Below, in pieces: positions 1 through 53,680 of a DNA stretch of 64,000 nt. Numbering within the stretch: the first letter of the stretch is position 1; each line of letters starts with the position of its first letter. Source of the stretch: Candidatus Shapirobacteria bacterium CG_4_10_14_0_8_um_filter_39_15. GTDB lineage: Bacteria > Patescibacteriota > Microgenomatia > UM-FILTER-39-15. Made by a program: the position numbers and the translations under genes. The DNA lies in NCBI GenBank assembly GCA_002784465.1, contig PFLE01000013.1:10972-74971 (forward strand), in the 5' to 3' direction. The notes below the pieces were generated by a model. That model searched no databases. It had not been told where the DNA came from and saw only the letters and a program-made list of their open reading frames with translations.

Positions 1-1437
1 TTGCCCTAAAATTTTTATCGGTTAGAATCCGCGGAACATCAACCAATGTCGTATCTTCCTTGTGTAAAAGGGTTAATAAGGAATTCCTCAAAATATATTC
101 CAGCCGCGGCCCCCAAGAGTAAGAATAAAGTTTGTAAAAAATCGCCACAATCCCTGACGCTACCAATTCCCGTAATTCCGGATTTTTCACTTCCAAAAAA
201 TTTAAATGGAACGGGTGGGCAATATCTGACGGGTCAAGATAGCAAACATCATTTATTCGATTAGAAGGAACATAATCTAAAATATTGGCCGAAAGATCAC
301 CGTGAGGATCAATCACGCCTATTCCCTCTCCGTTTCTCATATCGTTAATCGCCATATTGGCAATTAAGGTAGATTTTCCGGTTCCGCTTTTCCCGATAAT
401 ATAAACATGTTTTGCCCGATCTCTTTTTTTAATTCCATAAACCACCATTTTATTTTTATATTCGGTTTTGGCAAAAAAATTAATCAGTTTTTTCTCTTCA
501 TCAGTAGTAACACTAAAAGAAGTTGGTAGATTATCCGGCGGTTCTCCGACTAAGCGCGTTCCCCAAGCAATATTTCTAATCCCCGCTAAAGTTAATGAAG
601 GCAGATGAAAAATTGTCGCCAATTCCGCAATATTTAAAACTTGACGGCCCGGAAAATAAGCTGCCCGGCGGGTAAGAATCGCCTTAAGGAATTTTTTATC
701 CTGTAAAAATGAAGGGCGGCTTAAGGACAAAGCATTTCCTTCACCTAAAGAAAGGCTGCCGAAAGAACCGGCCAAGTTTTTTAGTTGCGACTGGCTTTTG
801 GATTTATAAGGAGAACAAACCAATAATCTAATCGCGCAGTTAAATCCCTGTTGATTTATTTTTAGCTCAATAATTTTAGCGTGAGGGTGGGCCACCACTC
901 GTCCATCCGGAGAAAGAATTCCTTTGCGGACAACGCTGGCACCGATTTGCTGCCAACCGCTGCCGGCCGGCAAGATAACAATTTGCATCAGCATTTTTTC
1001 TTCCTTTTCTGCCATGGCCATCGTTCCCAAAACTGCGGACAAAGGATCAGTTTCTTTAAAATCGGTATATGTTTTAAGCGGATAATAAAAAGGTGCCGTC
1101 AGTTTCAATTGTCCATAAGATTGGGAAAAGTCTTTAGTAAGCCAGCCGGGTAGATAATCCGAGACGACGGTCAAAGTAGCTTTAGGATATTGGGCCGATA
1201 ATTGGCTCTCAAAGTAGGTCCGATATTCCAGCGGAACCACGGCATAAAAATGAATTACCTGCTCATAAGTAGCAATTTCAAAAACAATCGGCTGACCTTT
1301 TCCCAAAAGACGATCTAAAAAAGAAAGTCTGATGTTAGAAAGAGAGGCAAAGACACCCGCCATCGTTTCCGGTGTGTGTTCCGTATCCCTTGGCAATCTC
1401 AATTCCAAAATTACATTTTTCTCAATTTTCTCCATCA
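1..1437 (-). CDS. P-loop ATPase resembling T4SS coupling proteins (TraD/TrwB/VirD4 family); 5' partial at window edge
   Basis: Minus-strand ORF starts ATGATG at 1437 (MMEKIEKNVILELRLP...) and runs to the window edge. It has a Walker A IIGKSGTGKST followed by VIDPHGDL, which matches the TrwB/TraD pattern GxTGxGKS...IVDPxGD. No N-terminal TM helices seen. It is not in the ORF track because it is truncated by the edge. Confidence 0.45.
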
Positions 1438-1603
1438 TAATAATTTTAGCAGATTATTGTATTTCTTCATAATTTCCATTTCAAGATTATGGGGGTGAAA
1501 TTTAATTATGTTTTCATTTACAATTTCTGTTGTCCTGTGTTTGCGCATATATAACAACTGCGTCTTTCTCGCTAAAATTTCTAAAAAATCAAGGAAAAAA
1601 TTC

Positions 1604-2284
1604 TTAGGCATTAGGTAAATATTTTTTCACCCAGAAATTCGCGGTCATAAATTTATGATAAGTATTTTCTCTTTCAAAAATTGGTCTCATTTGGCAAATC
1701 TCGTGAGCAATAAATAAATTCTGGTCTTTAATAACCAAGTTATCATTAGAAATAAACAGATTCGGACAAATCATGTTGGCAATTTTATTGGGCCGCCGAT
1801 ACAATCCCCGAAGACAAAGAAGCACCACAACTAATCCCCTGGTTAACCAAAGACGATTCTTTGAAGTAATAAAGAATAAATCAATATCGTCTTTTTCGTC
1901 TGAATTTTTTACCGCCAGCGAACCGGTAATGCCTATCAGCTTGATCCATTTAATATGTTTCAAGATTTGTACTGCACGGTTAGCAATTGCTAATTTCTTC
2001 CTCGACCAAACTTCCCGATCTTTTCTAATCTTGATGTTTCTTTCTTTTCCCGATAAACAATAATAATTGTTAAGCAACCGAATCTTTTTATCTTTTAACA
2101 GACCTTCCAGATCCATATTCCATTTTCTTTTTCCATCTTCTACCTTCCAACCTCCACCTCGGCTCGACCGCCGAGTCGAGACGGGTCCACCTTCCAACAC
2201 CAACCACCGCCAGATTTCTTCTTTTTTCAGAGGGTAGGCAAATAAATCAGCATAAAGCAAAGTTCGAAGAATAGCATTTTTCAT
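1604..2284 (-). CDS. Nucleotidyltransferase-fold protein (pol-beta-like NTase) with a GC-rich in-frame insertion
   Basis: GS-x9-DxD motif GITGSLAVKNSDEKDDIDLFF. The central low-complexity segment GGPVSTRRSSRGGGWKVEDG is encoded by a GC-rich palindromic stretch at about 2135-2212. Confidence 0.5.
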   Translation of the reverse strand: MKNAILRTLLYADLFAYPLKKEEIWRWLVLEGGPVSTRRSSRGGGWKVEDGKRKWNMDLEGLLKDKKIRLLNNYYCLSGKERNIKIRKDREVWSRKKLAIANRAVQILKHIKWIKLIGITGSLAVKNSDEKDDIDLFFITSKNRLWLTRGLVVVLLCLRGLYRRPNKIANMICPNLFISNDNLVIKDQNLFIAHEICQMRPIFERENTYHKFMTANFWVKKYLPNA

Positions 2285-3733: not shown

Positions 3734-3751
3734 ACAACTATATTAACATAA

Positions 3752-3872
3752 AGTAGGTAATCAGTTAATCAGGATATCGGGAAAAGAGAGTAGAGATCAG
3801 TTGTCAGAAATCTCCCGATATTCTGTTCTCTGTTTTACTTAACCCGATACTCTGGTCTACTGATTTACTTCT
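3752..3872. repeat. Palindromic ~120-bp dispersed repeat (family A: ATCAG/CTGAT words), copy R1, in the divergent promoter region of the SBP gene and tsaD
   Basis: GGTAATCAGTTAATCAGGATATCGGGAAAAGAGA...CTCTGTTTTACTT...TCTACTGATTTACT aligns at about 75% with the copy at 26873-26996 and with the other copies. The termini are inverted (ATCAG...CTGAT). Confidence 0.6.
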
Positions 3873-3909
3873 ATTTTCAGATTTATCTTTTTGGCCGTAT
3901 AATACTCCT

Positions 3910-5154
3910 ATGAAGATTTTAGCTATTGAATCCTCTTGTGATGAGACCGCTGCGGCGATTGTTGAAGATGGAACGAAAATTTTATCCAACGTTGTCGCCT
4001 CTTCGGTCGAAATGCACGCCAAAACCGGTGGCATTATTCCCGAGGTAGCGGCAAGAGAACAGGTTAAATGCATTATTCCCGTAATACAAGAGGCTCTCAA
4101 CAGGACAGATTTCAGTAAATCAGTAAAACAGTACAACAGTGAAACGGTAATCGGTAAAACGGTAAAAAAAGTTACTGAAATTACTGATTACTGTTCTACT
4201 GATTCACCGCTTAACCGTTTTACTGACATAGACGCCATAGCGGTAACCGTTGGTCCCGGATTGGTTGGTTCATTGCTTGTTGGTATTGAAACCGCTAAAA
4301 CGCTTGCCTATCTTTGGCAAAAACCAATTGTACCGATAAATCATTTGGTTGGACACATCTACGCGAATTGGCTTAACACCAGTAAACCAGTAGAACAGTT
4401 AAACCGTACAACAGCAGTCGGTAAGACAGTAAAAAAAGTTACTGAAATTACTGATTACTGTTCTACTGATTTACCGTTTCACTGTTTTACCGAACCGAAT
4501 TTTCCAGCGATAGCCCTCGTTGTTAGTGGCGGACATACTGATTTAGTTTTAATGAAAAACCATGGAAAAATTGAGTGGCTTGGCGGAACCAGAGACGATG
4601 CGGGCGGAGAATGTTTCGATAAATCGGCACGTTTACTGGATTTACCTTACCCTGGAGGTCCTTCTATCTCTGCCGCAGCTCAACAATATAGCAATATAAC
4701 AATAAAACAATCGGCCATTCGACTCCCTCGCCCCTTAATGGATGAAGATAACTTTGACTTTAGTTTTTCGGGATTAAAGACAGCGGTCCTCCGTGAGGTT
4801 CAAGACCTAAAAAACAATCAGCAATATAACAATATAACAGTAGAACAATTATCTTATGAACTCCAAGAAGCTATTACCGATGTTTTGGTTACTAAAACCA
4901 TTCGTGCTGCCGAAAAATATAAGGTTAAATCCATTCTTCTCGCCGGCGGCGTCTCCGCGAACCAAAGATTACGAGAAAAAATGCATTTAAAATTTAAAAA
5001 TTTAAAATTTAAAATTGAGTTTTGGTGTCCCCCGCCAAAACTTTGCACCGACAACGCCGCCTATATCGCTTCCTGCGCTTATTTCAACTATAAACCAGTC
5101 CCCTGGCAGGATATTAAAGTTAATCCGGGATTAACAATTTCCGACAAAATCTAG
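3910..5154 (+). CDS. tsaD: tRNA N6-adenosine threonylcarbamoyltransferase TsaD (Kae1/YgjD family) carrying in-frame repeat insertions
   Basis: N-terminus MKILAIESSCDETAAAIV, HAKTGGIIPEVAAREQ, VSGGHT, DFSFSGLKTAV and C-terminal CTDNAAYIA are present. It is 414 aa versus about 340 typical, because of two ~38-aa inserts and simple-repeat segments. Confidence 0.85.
   Translation: MKILAIESSCDETAAAIVEDGTKILSNVVASSVEMHAKTGGIIPEVAAREQVKCIIPVIQEALNRTDFSKSVKQYNSETVIGKTVKKVTEITDYCSTDSPLNRFTDIDAIAVTVGPGLVGSLLVGIETAKTLAYLWQKPIVPINHLVGHIYANWLNTSKPVEQLNRTTAVGKTVKKVTEITDYCSTDLPFHCFTEPNFPAIALVVSGGHTDLVLMKNHGKIEWLGGTRDDAGGECFDKSARLLDLPYPGGPSISAAAQQYSNITIKQSAIRLPRPLMDEDNFDFSFSGLKTAVLREVQDLKNNQQYNNITVEQLSYELQEAITDVLVTKTIRAAEKYKVKSILLAGGVSANQRLREKMHLKFKNLKFKIEFWCPPPKLCTDNAAYIASCAYFNYKPVPWQDIKVNPGLTISDKI
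4113..4226. repeat. Family-A-like palindromic element inserted in frame within tsaD (insert 1)
   Basis: cagtaaatcagtaaaacagtacaacagtg...gttactgaaattactgattactgttctactgattcacc is self-complementary (CAGTAAATCAG vs CTGATTTACTG words). It encodes DFSKSVKQYNSETVIGKTVKKVTEITDYCSTDSPLNRFTD, placed before the conserved IDAIAVTVGPG. Confidence 0.55.
4379..4492. repeat. Second in-frame palindromic insertion in tsaD (insert 2), about 85% identical to insert 1
   Basis: ...ggtaagacagtaaaaaaagttactgaaattactgattactgttctactgatttaccg... encodes TAVGKTVKKVTEITDYCSTDLPFHCFTEPN, placed between HIYANWLN and the conserved FPAIALVVSGGHT. Confidence 0.55.
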
Positions 5155-9607: not shown

Positions 9608-12381
9608 TTAATTAAAGAAATTTCCAACTGACGATCCTCGGATAAAGAAGTATTATATACTACCGACCCCTTCTCGGTCAAGATAGGGAAATTTGACCAA
9701 GAAACTGCCGAAGAAACCGGATAGGAAATCGATAACTTATAAGGGTCGCTGCTAAAACCTGATTGTTTTTGAATATATGCTAAATATTGTCCGGAAATAA
9801 ATTTTTGGCTCTCCGGCAATTGGTAGACAATTTCCAAGCTTTGTTTTCTACCCACGGGGACCGTCAAAACCAATCCAAATATTTTTTTACCAAGATCACT
9901 CGATTGCTCAACTTGACATTCTTGATTAGCAATCTGGCAGCCAATCAAGGAACTGTCCGAATTAACCAAAATCCGCAGATAGGCTTTGTAATCGCCGGCA
10001 GGAAAAACATTGCTCGGACTTTTGTTTTCGTAATCCAAACGCAAAGTTTCTTTTATTCCCCCATCCTCTTGAATCTGAACCGAACGGGAAATCGACCGAA
10101 CCAGAAAATAGTTGGCTTTGTTCACACCAACATTGGCCTCATTAACCATCAGATAATCGGACAAACAAGATCCAGATTTTTGACAAACAGCGTTTTCGAT
10201 TATTCCGTCCCAATGATTTTTCTCAAGAAAGGCGGCTATTTTAGAATCGTTGGAACTAATTAAAATATCTCTTTGGTTAAGCGATTCCATCATTGCTTGA
10301 AAAATTTTTATTTTCGTTTTCGCATCGGCGGATTTAATTTTGTCCATTAAAACCTGGGCCACTTGCCCTAAAAAATCTTCCTTTTGCTTTGATCCCGGGA
10401 AAAATCCGGCTTCAATATAATATTCGGCGGTTTGAAAAAAATTGTCGGCATTGATTGTTTCCCGATAATCAGGCAATTTCAATTCCCCAAACACCTTAAT
10501 TAATTTTTGGGCGGCGTTTAAATTAATTCCAATAACCGCATCGGCCTGCCGGCCGGTTTCTTTTTCCAGGAACCACTTGGCGCGGATCGCGTTCTGGCCA
10601 AAATCTGGGCTCCAATTCGAATCGCGCAAATACCAACCGTCAACACCCAAGAGTTCCTTCAGTCTTACCGGCGGCTCAACATGACCCTTTAGCTGGCCAT
10701 CAGCATCATAAACATCGCCAACGCCAAAATGAAAAAGCTTTCCCGATTCGAAAGAAGCTAGTCCATAAGAACCGATAAATCCTCCGCCCGGCCGAAGCTC
10801 CATATTGTTTTGAAAAAGAAAAAGATAAACTATCCCTTGATCAGCACCTAACAATTTCGGGGAAACAACCAAGAAATCGCGGTAAATTAATAAAAATTTT
10901 TTTATCTCGGGAATAAATTTTTTGATTTCCAGAATTTTTGGCCCAACAATTTTTTCCCGCCCGGTAAAACTATTTAATAAAGCATTCGTGACAGAGACTT
11001 TTTCAATCGCCGAATTGCACTCGACTTGCAACGAAGATAATGCTTCCTTGAAAGGTTGGTTTTCCGAGCCAATCACCGTTAAGAAAAGCAGGTTGCTTAA
11101 TTTACCAACCCGGCTTAAAACCAATAAGCTGTCTGCTAAATTTTCTCCTAGAGCAATTGTCTTTTCCTGATTACCCCAAACAAATTGGCCGGCTTTGGCA
11201 ATCGGACCAAGTAAGCTAATTTCTTTTTGAAAAACTAAGGTTTTATTTTCCAGATCCACAAAATCGCCTTTTCCGGCCAAGCGCTGAATTTCTTTCATTT
11301 GATAGACTAGTTGAAAGAAAATCAAGATTATAAACATCAAGGCAACAGCTAAAGAAGCAGGAATAAATAATAAAAATTTAGGAATTGTTTTTCGGGGGCG
11401 GGTTTTCTGTTCCTTTACCGCCGGCTTTCGGGAAAATTCCCTAAGAGTTTCTTTAATCCCATCTTCCAGGGTATATTCCGGACGCCAGCCTAAGGGGTTT
11501 TCGGTTTCTTGGGGTGTACTTTCGATTAAACTGGAGAAAGAATTTTGGGCCACATATTCGATTTCGATTTGCTTATCGGTTGCTAATTGCCGGTTTTTTT
11601 TCAATTCCTGACAAAAATCAACAAGCGTAATCGGATTAGCCGGTTTTAAATCAAAAATCTTGCCGGCGGTTCCCGGAACAAGAATTGACCGCAGGATGCC
11701 GCTGACCGCGTCTTTAACATAAAGCGGGTAAATTTTTCCCTCGCCTTCGGCCGGAATTTTCAGGTTTTGTCCGGACAACAATTGATCAAAACAATAACCA
11801 ATCAACCCTCCGTTCATTTTCATTCTTGGTCCATAAACATCGCCAACGCGAACGACCCGCAAGTCAAGATCTTGCCGCTTTAAATGATTAAGAATTAATC
11901 TTTCGGCGAACCGTTTCGATTCGTGAAAAGAGAGGTTCTCCCATTGGCCGGCGTTGTCCCAATCGGGCAATTTAAATATTTCCAAAGACGAACAGAATAA
12001 CAATTTGGCGTTGTTCTTTAAACATAAAGCGATTAAATTTTCGGTTCCGATTGAATTGCTTTGCATAATTTCCAAAGAAATATCTTTTCCGGAAAGATAT
12101 TCCTCAACTGAAGTTAAATTAAAAATATAGTTGATGGCCGGAAAGTGATTTTTAATATAGAAGTCCGGGTTGTTAATATTATCCTCCAACAAAACGAAAC
12201 TATTTTTTCCCTGCAGCGGTTCAATGTTTCTTTTTTCACCGGTTAAAAAATTATCGACACAAAGAACCTGACAATCTAAAGACAAAAGCGACTCGCACAA
12301 ATAAGAACCAACAAATCCGGCTCCGCCGGCAACCAGCGCCGTTGTTTTTCCGGGGGACAAATTTTCTAAAGAAGAAGGCAT
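9604..12381 (-). CDS. Fusion protein: NAD-dependent epimerase/dehydratase (UXS/RmlB-like), then a TM helix, then a large extracytoplasmic domain resembling DUF4012
   Basis: Rossmann GGAGFVGSYLCESLL at the N-terminus. TM segment LLFIPASLAVALMFIILIFF at about aa 335-355. The C-terminal ~570 aa contain LFQNNMELRPGGGFIGSYG (from memory, like the DUF4012 signature motif). Confidence 0.55.
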   Translation of the reverse strand: MPSSLENLSPGKTTALVAGGAGFVGSYLCESLLSLDCQVLCVDNFLTGEKRNIEPLQGKNSFVLLEDNINNPDFYIKNHFPAINYIFNLTSVEEYLSGKDISLEIMQSNSIGTENLIALCLKNNAKLLFCSSLEIFKLPDWDNAGQWENLSFHESKRFAERLILNHLKRQDLDLRVVRVGDVYGPRMKMNGGLIGYCFDQLLSGQNLKIPAEGEGKIYPLYVKDAVSGILRSILVPGTAGKIFDLKPANPITLVDFCQELKKNRQLATDKQIEIEYVAQNSFSSLIESTPQETENPLGWRPEYTLEDGIKETLREFSRKPAVKEQKTRPRKTIPKFLLFIPASLAVALMFIILIFFQLVYQMKEIQRLAGKGDFVDLENKTLVFQKEISLLGPIAKAGQFVWGNQEKTIALGENLADSLLVLSRVGKLSNLLFLTVIGSENQPFKEALSSLQVECNSAIEKVSVTNALLNSFTGREKIVGPKILEIKKFIPEIKKFLLIYRDFLVVSPKLLGADQGIVYLFLFQNNMELRPGGGFIGSYGLASFESGKLFHFGVGDVYDADGQLKGHVEPPVRLKELLGVDGWYLRDSNWSPDFGQNAIRAKWFLEKETGRQADAVIGINLNAAQKLIKVFGELKLPDYRETINADNFFQTAEYYIEAGFFPGSKQKEDFLGQVAQVLMDKIKSADAKTKIKIFQAMMESLNQRDILISSNDSKIAAFLEKNHWDGIIENAVCQKSGSCLSDYLMVNEANVGVNKANYFLVRSISRSVQIQEDGGIKETLRLDYENKSPSNVFPAGDYKAYLRILVNSDSSLIGCQIANQECQVEQSSDLGKKIFGLVLTVPVGRKQSLEIVYQLPESQKFISGQYLAYIQKQSGFSSDPYKLSISYPVSSAVSWSNFPILTEKGSVVYNTSLSEDRQLEISLIK

Positions 12382-14163: not shown

Positions 14164-15384
14164 TCAATTATACCTCGTCAAACGAGGTTTACTCCAAGAC
14201 AGGCCGAGAACAATAGTAAAAAGGAGTTGAGTGGATTGTAAGGTCAGCCAATAGTGATCGAAAAGACCAAGGAACAAAATCACCGAGAGAGAAGCGAGAA
14301 GTGAGAAGTGGGAAGCGGGAATTCTTTTTAATGTTTGAAATAAAAGCCAAAGAAATAAAACTAAACCAACAAAACCGGTTTCGGCTAATACCAACAGAAA
14401 AATATTATGAACTGCCTGATACCAAAGAACTTGACCGCTGTCGTTCCAAAATTCCGGAAGTCTGACAATAAAATTATTTAGACCAACACCGAGAATTGGG
14501 GATTGTTGAAACATTTTTATTGCGGCGATATTTAAATCAACCCGCTGAAAAATTGCTTCGCTGCCTGATAGTTGACTAAACGCGAAAATAAAAATCAATC
14601 CAATAATCAAACTGGCCGAAAGAAAAACTTTTTTACCAATGATCCAGACAAGAATTAAAATTCCCGCCAGCCAAACAGAACGGGAGAAAGAAAGAAAAAT
14701 CGCACTAACAACTAAAATAATATACAAAAAGGAAAAAGACCGATTTCTTTTCCACCAATATGGAAAAGACAAAATAAAACCGACCAAAAGAAATCCGGCC
14801 AAAGCATTGGGATGGGGAAAGGTGGCATATGGTCTTAAAACCAGTTGTCCGTTGATAATTGCTTTGGCGATTCCCGGCGTCCCGGCGTCAAAAGTTCTTT
14901 CTCCCAACCAATACATTATTCCTCCTAATGATTTCTGTTTTAAAAACTGAATAACTGCAAACAGGCTGGAATAAATTACACTAATAGAAACTGGAAGCGA
15001 GAAGCGGGAAGCTTGATAATGATTTTGGATGATATAGATACCCAGAAAAACAAATTCAATAATTTTTATTAATAAATAAAATGCCGCTCCCTGGTTTTGA
15101 GCGAACAAGCAATTGATTAGCAAGAAAACCAAGAGACATAAAAACAAGATAAGAACTTTTGAATTTTTACTTGTAATTTTGACTTTTGACTTTTGACTTT
15201 TGACTTTCTCTACCAACCAATTAATCAGAATTCCAATAATAATCAGGTCCGTTAGATAAACAGTTGGGGAGAGGTAATCAATTCTTAATCCCTGAACAAA
15301 AGAAAAAGCCGGCCAAAAATGCTTACCCAATTGAACCGGCATCAAAAGCAGAAGAAGATACCAAAAAACAGAATGAAGTTTCAC
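14164..15384 (-). CDS. O-antigen ligase / Wzy_C family polymerase-ligase
   Basis: Polytopic membrane protein with a large loop (ATFPHPNALAGFLLVGF...). Contains simple-repeat-encoded segments (KVKSQKSKVKITSKNSKV from the 4x ttttgac run). Confidence 0.6.
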   Translation of the reverse strand: MKLHSVFWYLLLLLMPVQLGKHFWPAFSFVQGLRIDYLSPTVYLTDLIIIGILINWLVEKVKSQKSKVKITSKNSKVLILFLCLLVFLLINCLFAQNQGAAFYLLIKIIEFVFLGIYIIQNHYQASRFSLPVSISVIYSSLFAVIQFLKQKSLGGIMYWLGERTFDAGTPGIAKAIINGQLVLRPYATFPHPNALAGFLLVGFILSFPYWWKRNRSFSFLYIILVVSAIFLSFSRSVWLAGILILVWIIGKKVFLSASLIIGLIFIFAFSQLSGSEAIFQRVDLNIAAIKMFQQSPILGVGLNNFIVRLPEFWNDSGQVLWYQAVHNIFLLVLAETGFVGLVLFLWLLFQTLKRIPASHFSLLASLSVILFLGLFDHYWLTLQSTQLLFTIVLGLSWSKPRLTRYN

Positions 15385-16645: not shown

Positions 16646-16654
16646 ACAATTTAG

Positions 16655-16733
16655 GATATCAGTTGATCAGAATATCGGGACAAGAAATCTGAGAGCAGAA
16701 AACAGAAAATTTAACTGATATTCTGATTTACTA
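16655..16733. repeat. Family A palindromic repeat, copy R2 (yidD-yidC intergenic)
   Basis: ATCAGTTGATCAGAATATCGGGACAAGAAATCTGAGAGCAGAAAACAG...CTGATATTCTGATTTACT aligns with R1 and R4. Confidence 0.55.
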
Positions 16734-16931
16734 GATTAAAGGGTCCAGCCCGCCCTTGCTCCAGGGGTGACATCTGAAAATTCTCCTTAAACCCTTCCAG
16801 CTTCCCAAAAGTATACCATATTTTTCGATTGCTTGGTATGTATATTCCGAACAAGTTGGCTGGAAGCGGCATCCGGGTAAAGAAAAATATTGATGGTAAG
16901 TCTTAAGAAATTTAAGAAGAAGGGTTTTCAT
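16731..16931 (-). CDS. yidD: Membrane protein insertion efficiency factor YidD
   Basis: 66 aa with conserved Cys pattern (GCRFQPTCSEYTYQAIEKYG...CHPWSKGGLDP). Confidence 0.85.
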   Translation of the reverse strand: MKTLLLKFLKTYHQYFSLPGCRFQPTCSEYTYQAIEKYGILLGSWKGLRRIFRCHPWSKGGLDPLI

Positions 16932-17416: not shown

Positions 17417-17463
17417 GTTTTCAGTATAGCACATAAATCCGAAATACGAAATCCGAAAATAAT

Positions 17464-17585
17464 AGTAAATCAGTAGATCAGAAAAATCAGGTTAAGCAAA
17501 ACAGAGAATAGCAAACAGTTTAGATATTTCTGATGTTCTGATCTCAGATTTCTTATCCCGATATACTGATTAACTGATAATCTAC
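17464..17585. repeat. Family A palindromic repeat, copy R3, in the rpmH-dnaA intergenic (origin) region
   Basis: AGTAAATCAGTAGATCAGAAAAATCAGGTTAAGCAAAACAGAGA...CTGATCTCAG...ATATACTGATTAACTGAT. Its left terminus equals the reverse complement of the right terminus of R1 and R4. Confidence 0.55.
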
Positions 17586-24363: not shown

Positions 24364-26180
24364 GTCGTTTTACCCAGCGCTTCTTGCTTTTGCCGCATTA
24401 ATTCTTCAGGCCGGGTGGTAATTAGAAGATGTTCTTCAGGAGAAGCCAAAACACGAATGCGAACGTGATTGGCGCCGGCAAAAAATAACCCTTCACCGAC
24501 GTTGGCAGCCAGTAAAAGATTTTTTTCTCCTTCGGAAAGGTAAAAGACTTTGGCAATTTGGTCAATGGCGGCCGGCGACTGCTTCATTAAAATCTGAATT
24601 GACGAGTTGGTGACAATCGCTTTTCCATAATCAGTGCTCAAAAAATCCTCCACGTCTTGGGTAATCGTGGTCAGCCCCAGCCAGTATTTCCGGGCTCTTT
24701 TGGCAATTGAGTAAATAAAATTGGCCGAATCCGGAAACTTCATCAGATACCAGGCCTCGTCAATAATCAAAATCCGGCGCTTCATATCCCGCTTAACCCG
24801 GGTCCAAATATAATCAAGAATGATAAACATCGCAATCGGTCGGAGAGCCTCCTCGAGACCTTTTAAAGAAAAAACCGTAAAAGCGTTTTTAATGTCAACG
24901 GTTGATCTTTGGTCAAAAATTCCCACAAACGAACCTTTAACGAATTTTTCAATTCGGTCAGCCAGGCCTTTGGCGTCCGTTTCTTCCATGCCGATTAAAA
25001 CTTTATAAAGATCTTCCATTAACGGCGGTTCGTTTTTTTGAGTGGCTGGTTCCGGGGTAATCCCCTTCAGTTTATAAGTCAAAATTAATGCCCGATCTAA
25101 GAGCGCTTCTTCCGAGGGAGTGAGATTGCCCATAATAACTTTAAAAAGCGAATGCAGGGAAAGAATTTTTAAACCCAATTCGTTTTCGTCCTTTTCATAA
25201 ACTTGCGATAAGTCAAAAGGATTTATTTTTGTTCCTGAATTAAAGGAAAACTCAATAAACTCACCGCCGATCGCCGCGGCCAAAGTCTTATATTCGGCCT
25301 CCGGATCAACGACGATGACTTCGGTACCGAACATGAGAGAACGAAGGGCTTCGAGTTTGACCAAATAACTTTTGCCTGCGCCTGACTTAGCAAATATCAC
25401 CGAGTTCGCGTTCTCCATGGTAAACCGGTCAAAAATAATTAAACTTCCGTTATGAAGATTAATGCCATACATAATTCCTTCATTGGCGGTTAGTTCCGAG
25501 GAAGTAAAAGGAAAAGTGGTGGCTAAGCTAGTGGTATCCATATTTCTGGTGATCATCAGCCGGTCAACGCAAAGCGGCAAAGTGGTTTTAAAGCCGTCTT
25601 CCATTTGTAAAGTCGTATTTTTGGAAACAATCAACAAAGAACCAAGGGTCGATTGCACTTGTTTGGTAACTCGGTCCAACTCTTCCAGTGAGTCGGCCGG
25701 GATCGTAATATAAAGCCCGAATTGGAAAAAGCGCTCAATGCCTTTGACCAACTGTTCCTGCAAAGCCCGGGCATCTTCCAGTTTGGCGGCCGTGCTCGGA
25801 TTAATCACCCGGCCTCCTTGGATATCTAAAGAAATTTCCGCTTCCATTTCGGCAATTTTTCGGCGCAAATCGTCTAAAACCGTTTTCCCCTCCACCGGAT
25901 AAATAAACATGGAAATATTTAAAGAATGATCAAAACTGATTAAGGGCGATAGCCAATTAGCGGCCACAAACCGCGGATAGCCGGCGACAAAAAGCGTTCG
26001 GAAATAAGAGTTGTTAATTTTAATATAATTAAAGTCAACTTCAATTGCCGACGGGGCAATAATATCTTTAACCGACAGCATTCCCTCGGCCAATTTCATA
26101 TCTGCCTCGGAACTTGCGGTTGTGCTTTCAGTTCCGGGTTCCGGGTCCTTAGTTTTACTAAAAGGCAATTTAAAATTCAT
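24360..26180 (-). CDS. VirB4/TrbE/TraE-family T4SS ATPase (C-terminal ATPase portion)
   Basis: Walker A FAKSGAGKSY, Walker B ILIIDEAWYLM, plus conserved VirB4 motifs (DPEAEY, TQ...DF). It is 606 aa, shorter than typical ~800-aa VirB4. Confidence 0.8.
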   Translation of the reverse strand: MNFKLPFSKTKDPEPGTESTTASSEADMKLAEGMLSVKDIIAPSAIEVDFNYIKINNSYFRTLFVAGYPRFVAANWLSPLISFDHSLNISMFIYPVEGKTVLDDLRRKIAEMEAEISLDIQGGRVINPSTAAKLEDARALQEQLVKGIERFFQFGLYITIPADSLEELDRVTKQVQSTLGSLLIVSKNTTLQMEDGFKTTLPLCVDRLMITRNMDTTSLATTFPFTSSELTANEGIMYGINLHNGSLIIFDRFTMENANSVIFAKSGAGKSYLVKLEALRSLMFGTEVIVVDPEAEYKTLAAAIGGEFIEFSFNSGTKINPFDLSQVYEKDENELGLKILSLHSLFKVIMGNLTPSEEALLDRALILTYKLKGITPEPATQKNEPPLMEDLYKVLIGMEETDAKGLADRIEKFVKGSFVGIFDQRSTVDIKNAFTVFSLKGLEEALRPIAMFIILDYIWTRVKRDMKRRILIIDEAWYLMKFPDSANFIYSIAKRARKYWLGLTTITQDVEDFLSTDYGKAIVTNSSIQILMKQSPAAIDQIAKVFYLSEGEKNLLLAANVGEGLFFAGANHVRIRVLASPEEHLLITTRPEELMRQKQEALGKTT

Positions 26181-26872: not shown

Positions 26873-26996
26873 ATAAGTAGATTATCAGTTAATCAGAATA
26901 TCAGGAAAAGAAATCTGAGAGCAGAAACCAGTAAAATTAACCGATTAACTGATCTCTGTTTTACTTTACCTGATTTTCCGATCTACTGATTTACTA
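26873..26996. repeat. Family A palindromic repeat, copy R4 (intergenic inside the T4SS operon)
   Basis: ATTATCAGTTAATCAGAATATCAGGAAAAGAAATCTGAGAGCAGAAACCAG...CTCTGTTTTACTTTACCTGATTTTCCGATCTACTGATTTACT is about 75% identical to R1. Confidence 0.6.
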
Positions 26997-28009: not shown

Positions 28010-28375
28010 CTAAGACGTATTTTTCATTAAGGTTGTTAATATTTTAATAAGCTCTTCGTTCGTATCCTTAAATTTTTTAATTATTTGCTCGTCAAATTTA
28101 TTCGTTTCTAAAATAATTTCTAGCCAATAATCAGCTTCAAAACTGGAACCGCGAGCAATTCCTAAAAATTGATGATAACTTTTCGAATAATGTCTTCCAT
28201 AACCTTCAGCGATATTGGCGCCGATTGAAGAAACCGCTCTTATTAATTGTTTTATTAAGATTTCAGAAACTCGGTCCAACTTGGCATTGGCAAAATAGTT
28301 TATAACATCAATTGTTAAGGTTTTTGCCTTTTGATAGACGATTAGATTTTTATGGGAACTGGGCGGGTTTTCCAT
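28010..28375 (-). CDS. Four-helix-bundle protein (23S rRNA intervening-sequence protein / DGR Avd superfamily, PF05635-like), copy 1
   Basis: From the internal Met: MENPPSSHKNLIVYQKAKTL...AVSSIGANIAEGYGRHYSKSYHQFLGIARGSSFEADYWLEI matches the family pattern (WQKA...IxxNIAEGxxR...FLxIAxGSxxE). Confidence 0.7.
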   Translation of the reverse strand: MENPPSSHKNLIVYQKAKTLTIDVINYFANAKLDRVSEILIKQLIRAVSSIGANIAEGYGRHYSKSYHQFLGIARGSSFEADYWLEIILETNKFDEQIIKKFKDTNEELIKILTTLMKNTS

Positions 28376-28509
28376 TCTTTCTATGCACTTTGTGCTATGC
28401 ACTATGTTACTATCCATCGAGATTGGATTCAACTGCTTCAGACCCGATCACATTACAAACAAAATATGGCAAGTGGAAACAACTTGGTTGTTTGTGGTAA
28501 AATTAGGTT

Positions 28510-28932: not shown

Positions 28933-29353
28933 ATTTATCTACCAAAAAATTGCTTTAATCCGCCAAGATCTGGAATTTTTGGACAAAATGGCAAATTTGA
29001 GTTTTGAGGAAGTGGCTAAGGACTTCTATAAATACAATACCGTTCAAATGTTATTAATGAAAATCATTGGTCGAGCCATTGATATTAACGAACACCTTAT
29101 TGACGAATTGGCCAACGCAGAAACGAAATCGCCTGGGACTTATCGGGAAACTTTTTTACAACTGGCAGACTTGAAAATTTTACCGGCTGATTTTGCTTCT
29201 GAAATTGCCAAAAGCGCCGGATTCCGAAATGCAATTGTTCATGAATATGACAAATTAGACGATTTTATTATTTATAAAACAATCGGCGAGGCGGTAGTCC
29301 AATATACTAAATATTGCCATTATGTTTTAGATCTTATCTCCAGAAAGTCTTAA
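28919..29353 (+). CDS. HEPN-domain protein (HepT/DUF86-like toxin)
   Basis: R-x4-H-x-Y motif FRNAIVHEY near the C-terminus; overlapping pair with the preceding MNT. Confidence 0.75.
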   Translation: MLNTEFIYQKIALIRQDLEFLDKMANLSFEEVAKDFYKYNTVQMLLMKIIGRAIDINEHLIDELANAETKSPGTYRETFLQLADLKILPADFASEIAKSAGFRNAIVHEYDKLDDFIIYKTIGEAVVQYTKYCHYVLDLISRKS

Positions 29354-29425
29354 TTTTTCCAACCATCTTTAACTCTCGTCTTGTAGACAGGACAAGAATA
29401 TGATAAAATTGTTCCAAATGCAATT

Positions 29426-30703: not shown

Positions 30704-30714
30704 ACTCAGTATAT

Positions 30715-30776
30715 TAAGTATTGTGGGTATATTTTGGATTTCATCTCAAAAAAGAATTAATTTTTCTTTACTACCA
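30715..30776. repeat. Conserved ~55-bp 3' element, copy 1 (also at 32060-32111)
   Basis: agtattgtgggtatattttggatttcatctcaaaaaagaattaatttttc versus aatattgcgggtatgttttagatttcatctcaaaaaagaattaatttttc. Confidence 0.6.
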
Positions 30777-30844: not shown

Positions 30845-32059
30845 ATGACAATTATCCGAGATTTAACCCTAAAGATAAATCATTACCTTCGATCGGAAGA
30901 GATTATTCTTATTATTGGAGCTAGACAATCGGGAAAAACGACGGTTCTTCATCAGTTGGAAGGATTCTTGCGTGAAGCAAAAGAGGTTTCCTTTTTTTTG
31001 AATCTAGAGGATTCAGAATATCTAACACTTTTGAACCAATCGCCAAAAAATATTTTTCAAATTTTTCCATTTGATCTAACCCAAAAAAACTTTCTTTTTG
31101 TTGACGAAATTCAATATTTGGATAATCCCTCAAACTTTTTAAAGTATTTATACGATGAATATGCGGGGAAAATTAAGATTATTGCTTCTGGTTCTTCGGC
31201 TTTTTATTTGGATAAAAAATTTAAAGAATCTTTGGCCGGGAGAAAAAGAATTTTTCAGTTATACACGCTTTCGTTTAAAGAATTTTTAAGATTTAAAGAC
31301 GAAACTCCGCTGGCCGAGAAGGATTTTATCGGATTAACTCTTTCGGAAAAGGAAAAAATAAGCCTTTACTATCAAGAATATGTGGTTTATGGAGGATATC
31401 CTAAGGTTGTTTTAGCGCCAAAAGAGGAAAAAGAAAATTTATTAAGTGATTTGGCCTACTCCTATATTAAGAAAGATATTTTCGAGTCGGGAATTAGGCA
31501 AGATGAAGTATTTTACCGGCTTTTTAAAATTTTAGCCTCGCAGACCGGAAACTTGGTCAATACCGCAGAATTAGCGGCAACCTTAGGAGTTTCTAAAACC
31601 GCGATTGATAATTATCTTTACACGATGCAAAAATCTTTTCATTTAGCTTTAATCCGGCCGTTTTTCCAAAACATCCGCAAGGAATTAACCAAAATGCCCA
31701 AAGTTTATTTTTTGGATTTGGGATTAAGAAACTTTTTTTGCAGCAATTTTAACCTTTTTGAAACACGGGATGATAAAGGACCGCTTTTGGAAAATGCCGT
31801 TTTTCGGCAGCTATTGGAAAAATATCCTTTGGAAGAGATTAAGTTTTGGCGGACAACGGCGAAACAAGAGGTTGATTTTATCGCTGGCGAAAACTCCGCT
31901 TTTGAGGTTAAATCGCAGGCAAAAAATGTCAGGCGGAAAGACTATCAAACCTTTTTAGAAAATTATCCAAAAATTAAGCTTTCCCTGGCTGTTTTTCAGG
32001 AAACAGAAAAAAAATCTAGCCCATTTCCCGTATATGAGGTTTGGCAGCTGCCAATTTAG
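30845..32059 (+). CDS. AAA+ ATPase with DUF4143 (COG1373 family), paralog 2
   Basis: IIGARQSGKTTVL, FLFVDEIQ; same architecture as paralogs 1 and 3; TTGACA-17-TATAAT promoter at 30808-30836. Confidence 0.75.
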   Translation: MTIIRDLTLKINHYLRSEEIILIIGARQSGKTTVLHQLEGFLREAKEVSFFLNLEDSEYLTLLNQSPKNIFQIFPFDLTQKNFLFVDEIQYLDNPSNFLKYLYDEYAGKIKIIASGSSAFYLDKKFKESLAGRKRIFQLYTLSFKEFLRFKDETPLAEKDFIGLTLSEKEKISLYYQEYVVYGGYPKVVLAPKEEKENLLSDLAYSYIKKDIFESGIRQDEVFYRLFKILASQTGNLVNTAELAATLGVSKTAIDNYLYTMQKSFHLALIRPFFQNIRKELTKMPKVYFLDLGLRNFFCSNFNLFETRDDKGPLLENAVFRQLLEKYPLEEIKFWRTTAKQEVDFIAGENSAFEVKSQAKNVRRKDYQTFLENYPKIKLSLAVFQETEKKSSPFPVYEVWQLPI

Positions 32060-32111
32060 TAAATATTGCGGGTATGTTTTAGATTTCATCTCAAAAAAGA
32101 ATTAATTTTTC
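32060..32111. repeat. Conserved 3' element, copy 2
   Basis: See copy 1; 30-bp core gatttcatctcaaaaaagaattaatttttc is identical. Confidence 0.6.
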
Positions 32112-33931: not shown

Positions 33932-35515
33932 TCATCTTCCCGATAGAATCTTCTTGGTCGCAGCTTCTTTAGTATTCCAAGTAAGGCCTTGCCATTCTGT
34001 AGGTATTACAGGGCTTTTTCCTGTTGTTAAGTTGCGATAGCCTGCTTCAATTCCTCCGGCGGCCCCCATTCTTCCTGCAGCCATTGGAACACCCATTGCT
34101 GCTTCCCCTATTCCTAGTCTATCTCCAAACGATTTCCCAGCCAAAACATTTTTAATCATATCGGCAACATGAGGCGTCATGAGCATCAATCCTAAGGCAA
34201 CAAAGATCATTAAAAAGAAAAAGCTGACTCTGGCTGGGATACTCGCTTGTACGACTTGTTGAACTTCGGCTAAGGTTGATGGTGAGGCACCGGGAATAGA
34301 AACAATTCCTATTCCTGCGAAAGCTCCTTCGAGTAATGGCATTTCATGGAGGGATTCCCTAACCAGAAAATTGGCGATCAAGAGCATTGTTAAAACGACT
34401 GGTAGAACCGCGAGGTTGCTCAAAATATTTTTAAACCAAGCACCGGTTGAGCTGGAAGCAGGAAGGGCGCCAAAAGCAAGAAGAAATGGAGCGAAAATAA
34501 TTGCCAAAACAACATTTACATAAGCCTTAAGCAACGTCCACAAAAGACGAAAAAGGGCGATGATGAAAACGATAGCAAAAATGATCAAAAGAATTAATGC
34601 GCCGACGACTGCGCCGGTAGCCATTCCCGCCGGTCCTCCAAATGGAATACCGGCAACTCCTCCAACAATCATGCCAAGAATAATAAGGAAGACAGCACCG
34701 ATTTCAAACGGTGCCATTGCGGATTGAATAATTAAGCTAGCATTATCAACAACAGAGGTAACCGGGGTCCCGGAGACAAAACTGAAATAATCAGGCCGAA
34801 GTTGATGAAAAACACCCAAAAGAAGATTATTAATAATCCACATAAGGTCGACTAAAAAGCCAGCGATAGCATAGGAAAAAGTGACCAGAATTAAGCCAAT
34901 AATAATTTTTGGGAGGGCTGCCTCGAGGGTAATTATTGTGCGCGGATCCACTTTAAATCGAAACATGATGGCAAAACCGGTAATCACAAAAACCAAAACA
35001 AAAAGAAGGTAAGACATGTCTCGAAAAGCTTTCCAGAGAGGCAAAACCGTTTCCATACTTGTAAATCCAATGCCATTATCTTGTGCATAAGCCGGTTTAG
35101 CGATGCCGACCTTTGAACCAAGATCAGCTAAATAAGTCAATCCCGAAGCGGGAGGTGCTTGGTAAACTAAACCAATAAGAGAAGCGAGGGTTGGAACAAG
35201 TCCGCCATTATCTGTTCCCGGACTTGGGGTACCGCCGCTGGAAACAGTACTCAATTTTGGCATTCCTGCCTGATCCGCAAAAGAAAACATAATGGCTTTA
35301 ATGGTTTCGCGAACAAAACTTTGCAAATTCATATCCGGGGATTCTATTGCTTGCTGATATAAAAGAGGATATGAGGCTTCGGGTGTAGAAAATGCCAGAA
35401 CAGGTTTGGAAACGGCAAGAGAACCTGCAATTAAGAGAAAACCTAAGACAAATATGCGGAATTTGGTGTTCATAATGAATAAATTAAATCTAACATCATT
35501 ATTTTTTATTTTCAA
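33932..35515 (-). CDS. Polytopic membrane protein, VirB6/TrbL-like candidate (T4SS inner-membrane channel)
   Basis: Signal peptide (FLLIAGSLAVSKPVLAF), about 200-aa periplasmic N-domain, then about 6-7 TM helices rich in G/A/I (IPFGGPAGMATGAVVGALILLIIFAIVFII). Next to the pilin operon. Confidence 0.45.
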   Translation of the reverse strand: MKIKNNDVRFNLFIMNTKFRIFVLGFLLIAGSLAVSKPVLAFSTPEASYPLLYQQAIESPDMNLQSFVRETIKAIMFSFADQAGMPKLSTVSSGGTPSPGTDNGGLVPTLASLIGLVYQAPPASGLTYLADLGSKVGIAKPAYAQDNGIGFTSMETVLPLWKAFRDMSYLLFVLVFVITGFAIMFRFKVDPRTIITLEAALPKIIIGLILVTFSYAIAGFLVDLMWIINNLLLGVFHQLRPDYFSFVSGTPVTSVVDNASLIIQSAMAPFEIGAVFLIILGMIVGGVAGIPFGGPAGMATGAVVGALILLIIFAIVFIIALFRLLWTLLKAYVNVVLAIIFAPFLLAFGALPASSSTGAWFKNILSNLAVLPVVLTMLLIANFLVRESLHEMPLLEGAFAGIGIVSIPGASPSTLAEVQQVVQASIPARVSFFFLMIFVALGLMLMTPHVADMIKNVLAGKSFGDRLGIGEAAMGVPMAAGRMGAAGGIEAGYRNLTTGKSPVIPTEWQGLTWNTKEAATKKILSGR

Positions 35516-40400: not shown

Positions 40401-40742
40401 AACAACTGAAGCATAATCACTTGGGTTTTCTTTTATAGTTTCTAAAGCATCAATCGGTAAATTGGTACCACTATCATATTGATGAATTCGGTATAAAGTG
40501 GTAACCACTGGCCGGGCATCATCCTCAACCAAACCGCACAATCTGGGAGCACTGTTTACGGGATGCGCGAAATAAAAAAGACCATAATTATGACCTTGCT
40601 CACCGATTGGAATTTGAACTAAACCTCTTAAGCTTATTCTTAGATCCAGATCGGTTTCTGCAGTACGGGCATAAATTGGGGAAGATATACCAGCAAACCA
40701 GACAACCAGTAAACTAGAAAACCCGAATAGAAGTTTCTTCAT
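37446..40742 (-). CDS. 1098-aa secreted Cys/Trp-rich surface protein, candidate pilus-associated adhesin; C-terminus carries a defensin-like 6-Cys motif
   Basis: Signal peptide MKKLLFGFSSLLVVWFAGISSPIYA. Last gene of the pilin operon. Terminal CSQLGGTCTDSCAANDTLGTGLPGGDGCGGVNVCCKP has the pattern C-x6-C-x3-C-xn-C-x5-CC. Confidence 0.55.
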   Translation of the reverse strand: MKKLLFGFSSLLVVWFAGISSPIYARTAETDLDLRISLRGLVQIPIGEQGHNYGLFYFAHPVNSAPRLCGLVEDDARPVVTTLYRIHQYDSGTNLPIDALETIKENPSDYASVVGFSTNGSSTGNILVPAAPFSIGNGKQVMVYYASSNEIFIMYNTGGGIRNGYGIHIMGNFTVRPELLALYNQLNAAGRVQLPALGASEILGTAHGDIQVAIRDTGGFMDPRWKNDWWDPCNTPAKANTTLPGTIDTKPPLPNYPSTVCDLTQNGDRNSRPVACQACNIGNNSGSCATSFTVTDHVSWQRWMGPDSCTDATLTVPHLVTTTWGGTITINPKDITIPFVGKEDQESESKYLADYFEGTNEYYKNYEKYWLDYVNYAGVLRKLTPMTYQDTLKEQMVARAVRSLNTQAPFEGKIHDYMVNYPTRLCWDAPFIMEISYDIWNEFNLISLIYKKLGVPVPSKDEWFHHCLFNNSADQAVEIDKIGLILRAYNASPLGKLLPIDVRYYSMGFIPIPPFSDLEGHKKLSEIASHLPPSVNDSDYEIKWATWKKSTWGRIWEAVPLVSREDTEGLIQPYLGAKNEDTFTNLDPTNKNQVEKVPHLARLYESSKIVSSILIPYNEPITTTAQISNNQNVLADNSSTNNPLTGLFSPKSVQAATPPPCQRYCTGNMTFYDIDAPAPGQHSFKSYFCVPCPAGQNCDGISHLKNLSIYDSGGASGFLSDTGGPEIQCPGKWETQWGTNYHPSTINMNVGDAFTVSANWTKASGGSRANCCVDGGSVSCSITLAQNADGTYKWDTTCGVAPAPPPTCFQDPAKSIDSCIKKDAITGTGDTLCCSNIQYKLTAVDKFENNRYVACNGSSWACQAWLLEEGKYDQINMDPCLDLGGRGNGHTVTCEAGDWANPNNVAPDPVCVQIQNTDNRCYEWTGREGSQPTIWNDSEQVSRNIGVSLIHPYLDDIWNQTSGSMGVLNIFRPSFHPGFPDTPAISQATIKYTPYSDQVGWCSGNLPIKGDCPLQRHKDGSTSPTEGQFYFPHLGGIQQAKQWVTNSLFPASLTSVNPVLSCSQLGGTCTDSCAANDTLGTGLPGGDGCGGVNVCCKP

Positions 40743-53211: not shown

Positions 53212-53290
53212 GCACACAAGAGCACTAGTACGTCAGAACACCAGAGCGCTGGAAACTAGTACACTGGTGCACTAGATCACCAGATCACTA
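53212..53290. repeat. Left arm of CACTAGTAC-word inverted repeat flanking four-helix-bundle gene copy 3
   Basis: cacaagagcactagtacgtcagaacaccagagcgctggaaactagtacactggtgcactagatcaccagatcactagtactctagg; partner arm at 53681-53760. Confidence 0.6.
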
Positions 53291-53308
53291 GTACTCTAGG
53301 ATAGGATT

Positions 53309-53668
53309 ATGAACGAAGATGCTTCTTACAAAAAACTAATAATTTGGCAAAAGGCCGATCTTTTTGCTAGAGAAATCTATAAAGTCACAGTATTTTTTCC
53401 CAAAGATGAAATATATGGTTTAACCTCCCAGATACGAAGAGCTGTTCTCTCCGTTGTTCTTAATATTATTGAAGGTTATGCAAGAAATAATAAGAAAGAA
53501 TTTAAGAATTTTTTAAGGATTGCTTATGCTTCGTTGGTTGAGGTTGAATATTTGCTCGAATTTTCATCTGTTAGAGGCTACATAACGAAAGAAAAATATT
53601 TTTTTCTTAATGGTTTAAGAGACGAATGTGGAAAAATTCTTTGGAAGTTTATGCTTTCCCAAAAATAG
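53309..53668 (+). CDS. Four-helix-bundle protein (23S-IVS / Avd superfamily), copy 3
   Basis: KKLIIWQKADLFAREIYKVT...GLTSQIRRAVLSVVLNIIEGYARNNKKEFKNFLRIAYASLVEVEYLLEF. Confidence 0.75.
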   Translation: MNEDASYKKLIIWQKADLFAREIYKVTVFFPKDEIYGLTSQIRRAVLSVVLNIIEGYARNNKKEFKNFLRIAYASLVEVEYLLEFSSVRGYITKEKYFFLNGLRDECGKILWKFMLSQK

Positions 53669-53680
53669 CGATTTATTATC

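Follow-up and report, generated by a model that had tools for sequence, protein, structure and literature searches.

Two in-frame palindromic repeats with periodic arms in the tsaD gene of a Candidatus Shapirobacteria genome

The tsaD gene (positions 3910-5154, + strand) of a Candidatus Shapirobacteria metagenome-assembled genome, belonging to the candidate phyla radiation (CPR/Patescibacteria), carries two segments of 114 nt at 4113-4226 and 4380-4493. They are 85% identical to each other without any gap, each forms an imperfect hairpin, and both are read in frame. All positions are those of the 64-kb stretch of DNA analysed here, referred to as the window. We consider that these inserts are best explained, with a probability of roughly 0.6, as hairpin repeats with periodic arms behaving like the Rickettsia palindromic elements (RPEs), which would have entered the gene in an ancestor, would be kept up at the DNA level and would be tolerated as loops of the protein. 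To our knowledge, in-frame palindromic repeats in housekeeping genes have so far been regarded as a peculiarity of Rickettsia.

Two hairpin segments in the reading frame of tsaD

The open reading frame (ORF) at 3910-5154 encodes a protein of 414 aa (PIU03444.1) that matches the Pfam TsaD family (PF00814, E 1e-80), TsaD and HypF_C_2 being the only Pfam families found on it. Solved bacterial TsaD chains (327-354 aa) match it with E values of 1e-65 to 1e-72. The HxxxH metal site (H145, H149), the SGGHT motif (S206-T210) and the C-terminal Asp (D381) are all kept and are invariant in the ortholog alignment and, together with the family profile match, they place the product in the TsaD/Kae1 family. 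Compared to the solved chains, the protein is longer by ~70-80 aa, in good agreement with the ~75 aa estimated in a first-pass annotation made from the sequence alone. The HMMER match falls into three blocks and leaves query residues 66-101 and 157-196 unmatched, where the solved chains have ~3-4 residues; these gaps correspond to the two 114-nt segments. Since 20 contigs, drawn from several samples, encode an identical protein, the inserts are not an assembly artefact.

Insert 1 is located between the end of the helix formed by residues 45-64 and the strand IDAIAVT, directly before the block IDAIAVTVGPG, while insert 2 is located between the HxxxH-bearing helix and the strand FPAIALVV, directly before the block FPAIALVVSGGHT. 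These are the positions given by the first-pass annotation. In solved TsaDs the insertion points fall between residues ~65/69 and ~122/126, that is, in loops, and insert-free orthologs (330-341 aa) have 3-8 residues at both places. An AlphaFold2 model of the 414-aa protein reached a mean predicted local distance difference test score (pLDDT) of 82, and the blocks that make up most of the core average ~85-97. In this model, pLDDT is 46-67 in insert 1 and 43-50 in insert 2, compared to ~90 in the core, and both inserts are predicted to sit in low-confidence, floppy loops between conserved TsaD blocks.

Insert 1 (4113-4226, + strand; 38 codons, ~aa 68-105, SKSVKQYNSETVIGKTVKKVTEITDYCSTDSPLNRFT) and insert 2 (4380-4493, + strand; 38 codons, ~aa 157-195, SKPVEQLNRTTAVGKTVKKVTEITDYCSTDLPFHCFT) are both characterised by their minimum free energy (MFE), folding z-score and pLDDT, and they have the same layout. 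In an 8-nt register, about seven units of the consensus CAGTAAAA are followed by an A-rich turn and then by about seven reverse-complement units (TTACTGNN / TTTTACTG). The left arm of insert 1 (4113-4165, + strand) consists of about seven tandem units, one of which is 7 nt long, as seen from the 8-mer register, the lag-8 match (25/32) and phase analysis, and it pairs with the inverted array of TTACTGNN and TTTTACTG units in the right arm (4172-4226, + strand). The left arm of insert 2 (4380-4432, + strand), defined likewise by 8-mer register, lag and phase analysis, begins CAGTAAAC CAGTAGAA CAGTTAAA. Its right arm (4439-4493, + strand) is again an inverted array, with 92% identity to the right arm of insert 1 over 73 nt; this 73-nt core gives a BLAST E value of 3e-23 between the two inserts. 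The encoded peptides have a periodicity of 8 aa (3 x 8 nt).

The self-complementarity reported for these segments was confirmed. Palindromes were scored by a relaxed inverted-repeat BLAST, the strict version being too insensitive; a scan of absolute folding energies picked mainly GC-rich coding DNA and was superseded by the relaxed search. Insert 1 aligns with its own complement over 122 nt (67%, E 2e-12) and insert 2 over 101 nt (63%, E 4e-9). As sense-strand RNA, they fold with an MFE of -37.2 and -34.5 kcal/mol, corresponding to z-scores of -6.4 and -5.7 against 200 dinucleotide shuffles, none of which folds as well (0/200). The antisense strands give z-scores of -6.6 and -7.5, respectively.

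Both inserts are free of stops and, as had been noted, preserve the frame, over 38 codons each. A perfect (CAGTAAAA)n array would hold a TAA in each reading frame. Over six family members, however, none of the 8 units at the coding phase contains a stop triplet (TAA/TAG/TGA), its place being taken by TTA (six times), TAC (once) and TGG (once), in comparison to 30 of the 36 units in the two non-coding phases. Moreover, the single 7-nt unit moves the register past the next dangerous phase. The absence of stop triplets at the coding phase, along with this shift of register, indicates that the arrays are phase-adapted to read-through. The open frame and the avoidance of stops suggest that the inserts are translated.

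Conservation of the inserts and their counterparts in relatives

The closest database relatives of this TsaD are 70%, 61% and 60% identical to it. Comparing the gene of the window (W) with the 70%-identical ortholog (L004), core tsaD shows proportions of synonymous (pS) and non-synonymous (pN) differences of 0.68 (saturated) and 0.18, for a dN/dS of ~0.11. The corresponding values are a pS of 0.23 and a pN of 0.16 for insert 1, and 0.36 and 0.28 for insert 2, with a dN/dS of ~0.7 in both cases; between the two inserts of W they are 0.157 and 0.175, with a dN/dS of 1.1. Taken together, the synonymous divergence of the inserts is 0.29, compared to 0.68 in the core (Fisher p 6e-7), and non-synonymous rates are alike, although periodic A-rich arrays can be aligned in several registers, which possibly inflates identity and exaggerates the low synonymous divergence. 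As judged from these substitution patterns, conservation of the inserts lies at the nucleotide level, and the peptides drift freely.

The low synonymous divergence and the dN/dS of ~0.7-1.1 agree with the proposal that these segments are repeat elements rather than ordinary protein insertions. The pattern named in advance as speaking for the latter was conservation of the protein instead of the DNA, together with a lack of genomic repeat copies. As to conservation, the reverse was found, with the nucleotides held; no copies beyond tsaD occur in the 72 kb searched (the window plus 8.4 kb of extra flank on one side).

A paralog/ortholog comparison indicates how the two copies have stayed alike. 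Copies inside one genome are 82% identical, in W and L004 alike, while the orthologous sites of W and L004 are 78% identical at site 1 and 71% at site 2. The contrast is greatest in the centres of the elements, where paralogs are 86% (W) and 90% (L004) identical versus 67-75% for orthologs; this suggests intragenic gene conversion. The left edge of site 1 goes the other way, with 87% identity between genomes versus 71-77% between paralogs. In addition, an indel of 9 nt, which consists of one 8-nt unit and 1 further nt and keeps the frame, is common to both copies of one genome and separates W from L004. Two ancestral insertions followed by gene conversion in each lineage would be the most economical reading, four independent insertions at identical codons being less economical. 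The 85% likeness of the two copies, which had also been found in the first-pass annotation, is thus better explained by gene conversion inside tsaD than by two recent insertions.

Close relatives have TsaDs of 330 to 420 aa, the differences in length being concentrated at the two insert sites. Among the 105 relatives parsed, an excess of at least 15 aa is present in 40 at site 1 and in 26 at site 2; 15 show it at both sites and 54 at neither. Seven syntenic orthologs with available DNA (L004, L005, L015, L016, L017, L018 and L019), which have the neighbourhood SBP-tsaD-valS in common, were compared in detail; a separate related-locus search with TsaD gave 7 loci of at most 54% identity and was of no use. 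Each of the seven syntenic orthologs has an insert of 66-141 nt at one site or at both, amounting to 13 of the 14 sites, the exception being site 1 of L016 (36 nt). A lag-7 or lag-8 periodicity of 0.39-0.66 was found in 12 of these 13 inserts, site 2 of L017 being a plain palindrome. Nine of the 13 fold better than their shuffles (z -2 to -6.3), three do no better, and another, the 66-nt insert at site 1 of L015, does not fold (MFE 0). Indels in the adjacent valS, taken as a negative control, do not form hairpins (z +0.1 to +1.1), and weak lag-7 matches are limited to two short ones (0.41 and 0.50).

The CAGTAAAA family occurs in the same frame at both sites of L004 and at site 2 of L005 and L015, which means that both sites are already occupied in a 70%-identical ortholog and site 2 also in orthologs of 61% and 54% identity. 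The occupation of both sites by the same family in the same frame at such a distance indicates that the inserts are old and not recent transpositions. Unrelated units are found at site 1 of L005 and in L016, L017, L018 and L019, for example AATATCGN, CAGAAAA, GGGAAGT and a GGAATCC...CGCGGGAATGAC palindrome. Overall, the same two TsaD loops are occupied repeatedly by different periodic-arm families in related Microgenomates-type genomes, and elements of this kind are found in loops of other proteins as well.

Copies in a second gene were found in these relatives. The site-1 element of L017 TsaD recurs in frame in a 293-aa protein, where 77 nt are 83% identical to it and are translated in the same frame (ILGYYD...SKY), and the site-2 family of L016 TsaD is present in the ortholog of that 293-aa protein. 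Intergenic DNA also contains parts of the L017 site-2 element. Moreover, an exhaustive HMMER profile search with the insert peptide yielded a WecG-like glycosyltransferase (P0129) containing an in-frame CAGTAAAA-type element and two other hairpin inserts, the remaining matches being ORFs that run through long arrays of the same 8-nt unit as the inserts. The presence of the same families in different genes and of different families at the same loops indicates that this kind of element is mobile on evolutionary time scales.

It should be noted that P0129 (L021, 1385-2122, another metagenome) combines three distinct inserts, hairpins or arrays read in frame, with units of GAATACC / ATTCAGT heptamers, of the AGTAACACA type and of the CAGTAAAA type, and that the gene is apparently truncated after the last of them.

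A split gene of the window meets the same relatives. The ORFs at 1604-2284 (- strand) and 1435-1611 (- strand) are one gene, divided into 226 aa and 58 aa by a 1-nt frameshift, and the break coincides exactly with a hairpin insert of the orthologs in L016 and L017. Towards its N-terminus, the protein also contains a lineage-specific array of its own (2107-2161). The split could represent an element scar, a programmed frameshift or a pseudogene.

Origin of the inserts and likeness to known repeats

The scheme that we favour can be described as follows. An element with CAGTAAAA arms would have entered two permissive surface loops of TsaD in the ancestor of at least the 70%-identical relative, and it would have been carried in frame and translated since that entry. 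The encoded peptides would be tolerated, largely unstructured loops that are not under protein-level selection. The DNA sequence itself would be kept, with gene conversion between the copies homogenising their centres, and unit-level slippage would alter the arrays, selection passing frame-preserving and stop-free variants only.

Several results weigh against this scheme. Mobility in this genome is a matter of inference: the 47 of 62 window ORFs that were scanned contain no transposase domain, no presence/absence polymorphism was found, and the database has no near-identical insert-free allele that would represent an empty site. No target-site duplication is present either, the flanks GATTT|CAGTAAAT...TTTTACTGA|CATAG and AACAC|CAGTAAAC...TTTTACCGA|ACCGA having no direct repeat in common. 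The two copies in tsaD are the only ones in the ~72 kb searched, which leaves dispersal of the family in this genome without demonstration; the earlier statement that the same elements occupy both intergenic and coding positions here did not hold. An exact-pattern scan for ATTACYGTTCTACTGATTYAC gave no match in genome contigs and two chance matches in apparently eukaryotic metagenome contigs, in collections evidently lacking the contigs of this organism. RNAalifold found a common hairpin with a compensatory change in 1 of 21 predicted pairs, so that selection at the level of the hairpin is not demonstrated. The ambiguity of register mentioned above and the fact that translation is deduced rather than observed count on the same side.

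The main rival to the scheme is that the inserts arose where they stand, which we regard as possible although improbable. Slippage would make 7- or 8-nt arrays, template switching would invert them, nothing would have moved, and the two copies would be alike through one intragenic duplication or conversion. Tandem arrays in the window are indeed enriched in these periods (7 segments of period 7 and 10 of period 8, versus 0-1 for periods 4-6 and 9-12), and several direct arrays inside ORFs have no inverted partner. The sole two copies in this sample of the genome are both in tsaD, W and L004 differ by a slippage-type change of one 8-nt unit plus 1 nt, and the missing transposase is in keeping with this origin too. 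However, the second-gene copies are difficult to reconcile with such an origin: in L016 and L017, two unrelated genes harbour the same family, read in the same frame, the WecG-like gene has a CAGTAAAA-type copy, and 77 nt at 83% identity would not be recreated by independent slippage. Conservation of synonymous sites between genomes is likewise unexpected under free-running slippage.

A broader proposal, which we consider doubtful, is that the inserts belong to a previously undescribed class of CPR elements, 'periodic-arm palindromes', that spreads through protein loops and intergenic DNA by means of no recognisable transposase and is kept at the nucleotide level by a trans-acting factor or by an RNA or DNA function. 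A speculative candidate for that factor is the group of 23S-rRNA-IVP/Avd-like four-helix-bundle proteins, one gene of which (53309-53668) is flanked by 8-nt arrays. If such a class exists, it would act throughout the Microgenomates as a general source of new protein loops.

It is unlikely that the inserts are primarily functional nucleic acid, their structure being kept because it serves for processing (by RNase III, for example), pauses translation or offers an array for protein binding, with the peptide as a by-product. Synonymous sites that are far more conserved in the inserts than in the rest of tsaD, hairpins and periodicity that persist in orthologs of 54-70% identity, and the like design of intergenic hairpins found close to promoters and at gene ends would all be accounted for in this way. 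Against it stand the scarcity of compensatory changes (1/21 predicted pairs), the lack of an Rfam match and the wholly different sequences at the same sites in other lineages, many of which have none.

Adaptive protein insertion is even less probable. The loops would contact a partner or the tRNA in a reduced t6A machinery, the DNA symmetry being incidental; both sites are occupied across a clade, and the helix preceding insert 1 has been assigned to the TsaB-contacting helical bundle in the Aquifex aeolicus TsaD study (PMC11648230). This is contradicted by a dN/dS of ~0.7-1.1 in the inserts compared to ~0.11 in the core, by sequences and lengths that are wholly different between lineages, by the low pLDDT and by the lack of inserts in about half of the relatives. 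Finally, intron-like or hairpin-triggered excision before translation, which would restore a canonical TsaD and in which perfect length symmetry and strong terminal pairing would join the junctions, is hardly credible, since a length that is a multiple of three and the specific elimination of stops in the coding phase would not be needed if the inserts were excised, and no intron family matches in Rfam.

Returning to the RPE-like scheme, RPEs are described as ~100-150 bp palindromic repeats present in frame in housekeeping genes (Ogata et al. 2000, 2002, as recounted in PMC10969869). Palindromic DNA of ~100-150 bp, in-frame residence in housekeeping genes with probable translation into additional peptide, fold-compatible loop sites and the lack of a cognate transposase (here among the window ORFs scanned) are features that the tsaD inserts share with them. 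Related copies in several genes, another RPE trait, are seen here in the relatives L016 and L017. The differences are equally clear: the host belongs to CPR/Patescibacteria and not to Alphaproteobacteria, the arms consist of tandem 7- or 8-nt sub-repeats, the 72 kb of this genome show two copies only, which lie in a single gene, different families have taken the same pair of loops in one protein across a clade, and there is evidence for gene conversion between intragenic copies. Homology to any of the families RPE-1 through RPE-10 is unlikely in view of the different phylum and of arms designed in units of 8 nt. The comparison with selfish RPE-like palindromes made in the first-pass annotation is thus upheld for the in-frame hairpin DNA, the loop sites and the second-gene copies in relatives, while mobility in this genome would be putative.

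[quoted passage not shown] Unlike MITEs, in which terminal inverted repeats surround a core, each tsaD insert is as a whole one hairpin of periodic units, and neither a matching insertion sequence or transposase in the 64-kb window nor a high copy number accompanies it. The missing target-site duplication and the lack of a cognate transposase in the 47 of 62 window ORFs led us to reject this class. Short tandemly repeated repetitive (STRR) heptamer arrays of cyanobacteria are reportedly genome-wide, mainly intergenic direct arrays of 7-nt-class units of unknown origin, for example CCCCAGT. The inserts resemble them in being short arrays of 7-nt-class units, but here paired inverted arrays with other units are translated in an essential gene of another phylum. 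Repeat units of TIGR (tandem interspersed guide RNA) arrays are ~36 nt long; these arrays were set aside by description, as the period here is 8 nt, the arrays are inside an ORF and no Tas-like gene was seen.

In palindromic amphipathic repeat coding elements (PARCELs), palindromic DNA specifies an amphipathic motif of 25 residues that is repeated in tandem; most of the host ORFs belong to the membrane or the surface and have no known function (PMC2996958). They are similar in that coding DNA with dyad symmetry adds repeat peptides and apparently moves between genes. They were rejected given that each site has a single 38-aa unit in a loop of a conserved enzyme, with no 25-residue motif and no match to a Pfam repeat domain. 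Repetitive extragenic palindromes (REP/REPIN, mobilised by RAYT transposases; PMC3116915, PMC3733652), which also disperse as short palindromes in a genome while encoding no transposase of their own, are 20-40 bp long, extragenic, GTAG- or CGTC-tagged and associated with a RAYT (Y1 HUH) gene. The tsaD element is 114 nt long, intragenic and devoid of such tags, and no Y1 transposase was found among the window ORFs scanned, so that a REP/REPIN-RAYT system was not retained. Structured RNA, intron and intein were rejected as well, as no Rfam family overlaps either insert at E <= 1 and Pfam shows TsaD and HypF_C_2 only. We found no description of such elements in CPR bacteria in the full-text literature, the coverage of which is incomplete, so that this is absence of evidence only.

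The tsaD inserts represent the same outcome as in Rickettsia, reached in an unrelated genome-reduced lineage with another element architecture. They go beyond the Rickettsia case in the repeated colonisation of the same loops, in selection that is measurable on the DNA and not on the peptide, and in the apparent concerted evolution of the copies. Such a system may help in asking how selfish or structured DNA makes protein segments and spreads with no visible transposase, and it is relevant to the question why the proteins of CPR bacteria often exceed their homologs in length and in loop content. On the practical side, such inserts inflate protein lengths and fragment profile matches, and they may mislead annotation and the phylogenetic alignment of marker genes.

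Intergenic hairpins and other periodic arrays in the window

Another group of hairpins, family A, was found between genes. Its elements are ~115 nt long, have 8-nt periodic arms with ATCAGNNN units, and fold with an MFE of -31 to -47 kcal/mol over padded stretches of 121-166 nt. One of them (3754-3870), with 8-nt periodic arms and CTGGTCTACTGATTTAC in common with the inserts, lies 40 nt upstream of the start of tsaD and, when padded to 3740-3905, folds with an MFE of -47. Further family A hairpins are located at 16652-16735, 17455-17584 (- strand), 26878-26995, 54808-54930 and ~59430-59540. Several are found in divergent promoter regions, and one lies between rpmH-rnpA and dnaA, the presumed origin region. 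The first-pass annotation had derived the inserts from the same stock of words as family A. This was right insofar as the two have 13-20 nt (CTGKTCTACTGATTTAC) and the 8-nt unit architecture in common, and all 6 occurrences of the 9-mer CTACTGATT in the window are in family A ends or in the two inserts. The inserts are not family A copies, however, and family A is a related kind of element that forms a different family. Octamers over-represented throughout the genome, as uptake sequences or Chi sites are, were not detected, the words being confined to the elements.

Three other stretches of tsaD have a periodic character. A short 8-nt-periodic stretch at 4680-4711 (+ strand; CAATATAG CAATATAA CAATAAAA) encodes QQYSNITIKQ in a region of TsaD that varies among orthologs, and its membership is uncertain. 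It is 88% identical to a second CAATATAA-type stretch at 4818-4849 (+ strand), which encodes QQYNNITVEQ, a peptide conserved among orthologs (NQQYNNLTIQQLS). The latter is probably ordinary coding sequence, as the conserved peptide suggests, and is a possible source of the former. The third, an AAATTTA palindromic stretch of 7/8-nt periodicity at 4973-5032 (aa 358-370), encodes HLKFKNLKFKIEF; KNLKFKI-like peptides occur in the orthologs P0010 and P0012, and this stretch may be conserved coding sequence instead of an insert. Four weaker candidates for intragenic palindromes elsewhere in the window (10887-10980, 24868-24950, 14466-14559 and 34149-34216) proved to be ordinary coding sequence.

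Several of the period-7 and period-8 arrays are translated inside other ORFs. The 8-nt arrays at 54977-55046 (ORF 54954-56711, + strand) and 40682-40736 (ORF 37446-40742, - strand) are read as N-terminal hydrophobic or signal segments of a SpoIID-domain protein and a 1098-aa protein, for which repeat DNA appears to supply the leader peptides. A Wzy_C, O-antigen-ligase-like membrane protein (ORF 14164-15384, - strand) contains three in-frame heptamer arrays (14276-14336, 14982-15021 and 15152-15221), of the GAGAAGC type and with GTCAAAA repeated four times. In a ComF-like protein with a double zinc ribbon and a phosphoribosyltransferase (PRTase) domain (61413-62192, + strand), a GC hairpin, GCCTCGCCGCAAGGCGGGC, and an ACTTCTN heptamer array (62051-62104) precede the PRTase motif; hairpin and array are a possible further in-frame insert.

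Two genes for 23S_rRNA_IVP / bAvd-like four-helix bundles were found at 53309-53668 (+ strand) and 28013-28432 (- strand), with no reverse transcriptase nearby. The former is bracketed by self-complementary 8-nt arrays of the CTAGTGTA type at 53215-53300 and 53673-53765. A composite mobile unit of this gene and its flanks was considered and rejected, as the array blocks each fold on themselves and form no joint long stem.

Longer repeats are present as well. Immediately 3' of the tmRNA gene (60647-61010), 50 nt are repeated exactly and in direct orientation (61018-61067 and 61143-61192); duplication of a terminator or a past integration at tmRNA could account for this repeat. A 60-nt repeat of 75-88% identity occurs at 29300-29359, 30707-30766 and 32052-32111. 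It is found where a HepT gene and two ATPase genes (AAA_14/DUF4143) have their 3' ends; these two are paralogs, and a further paralog of them is located at 49370-50617.

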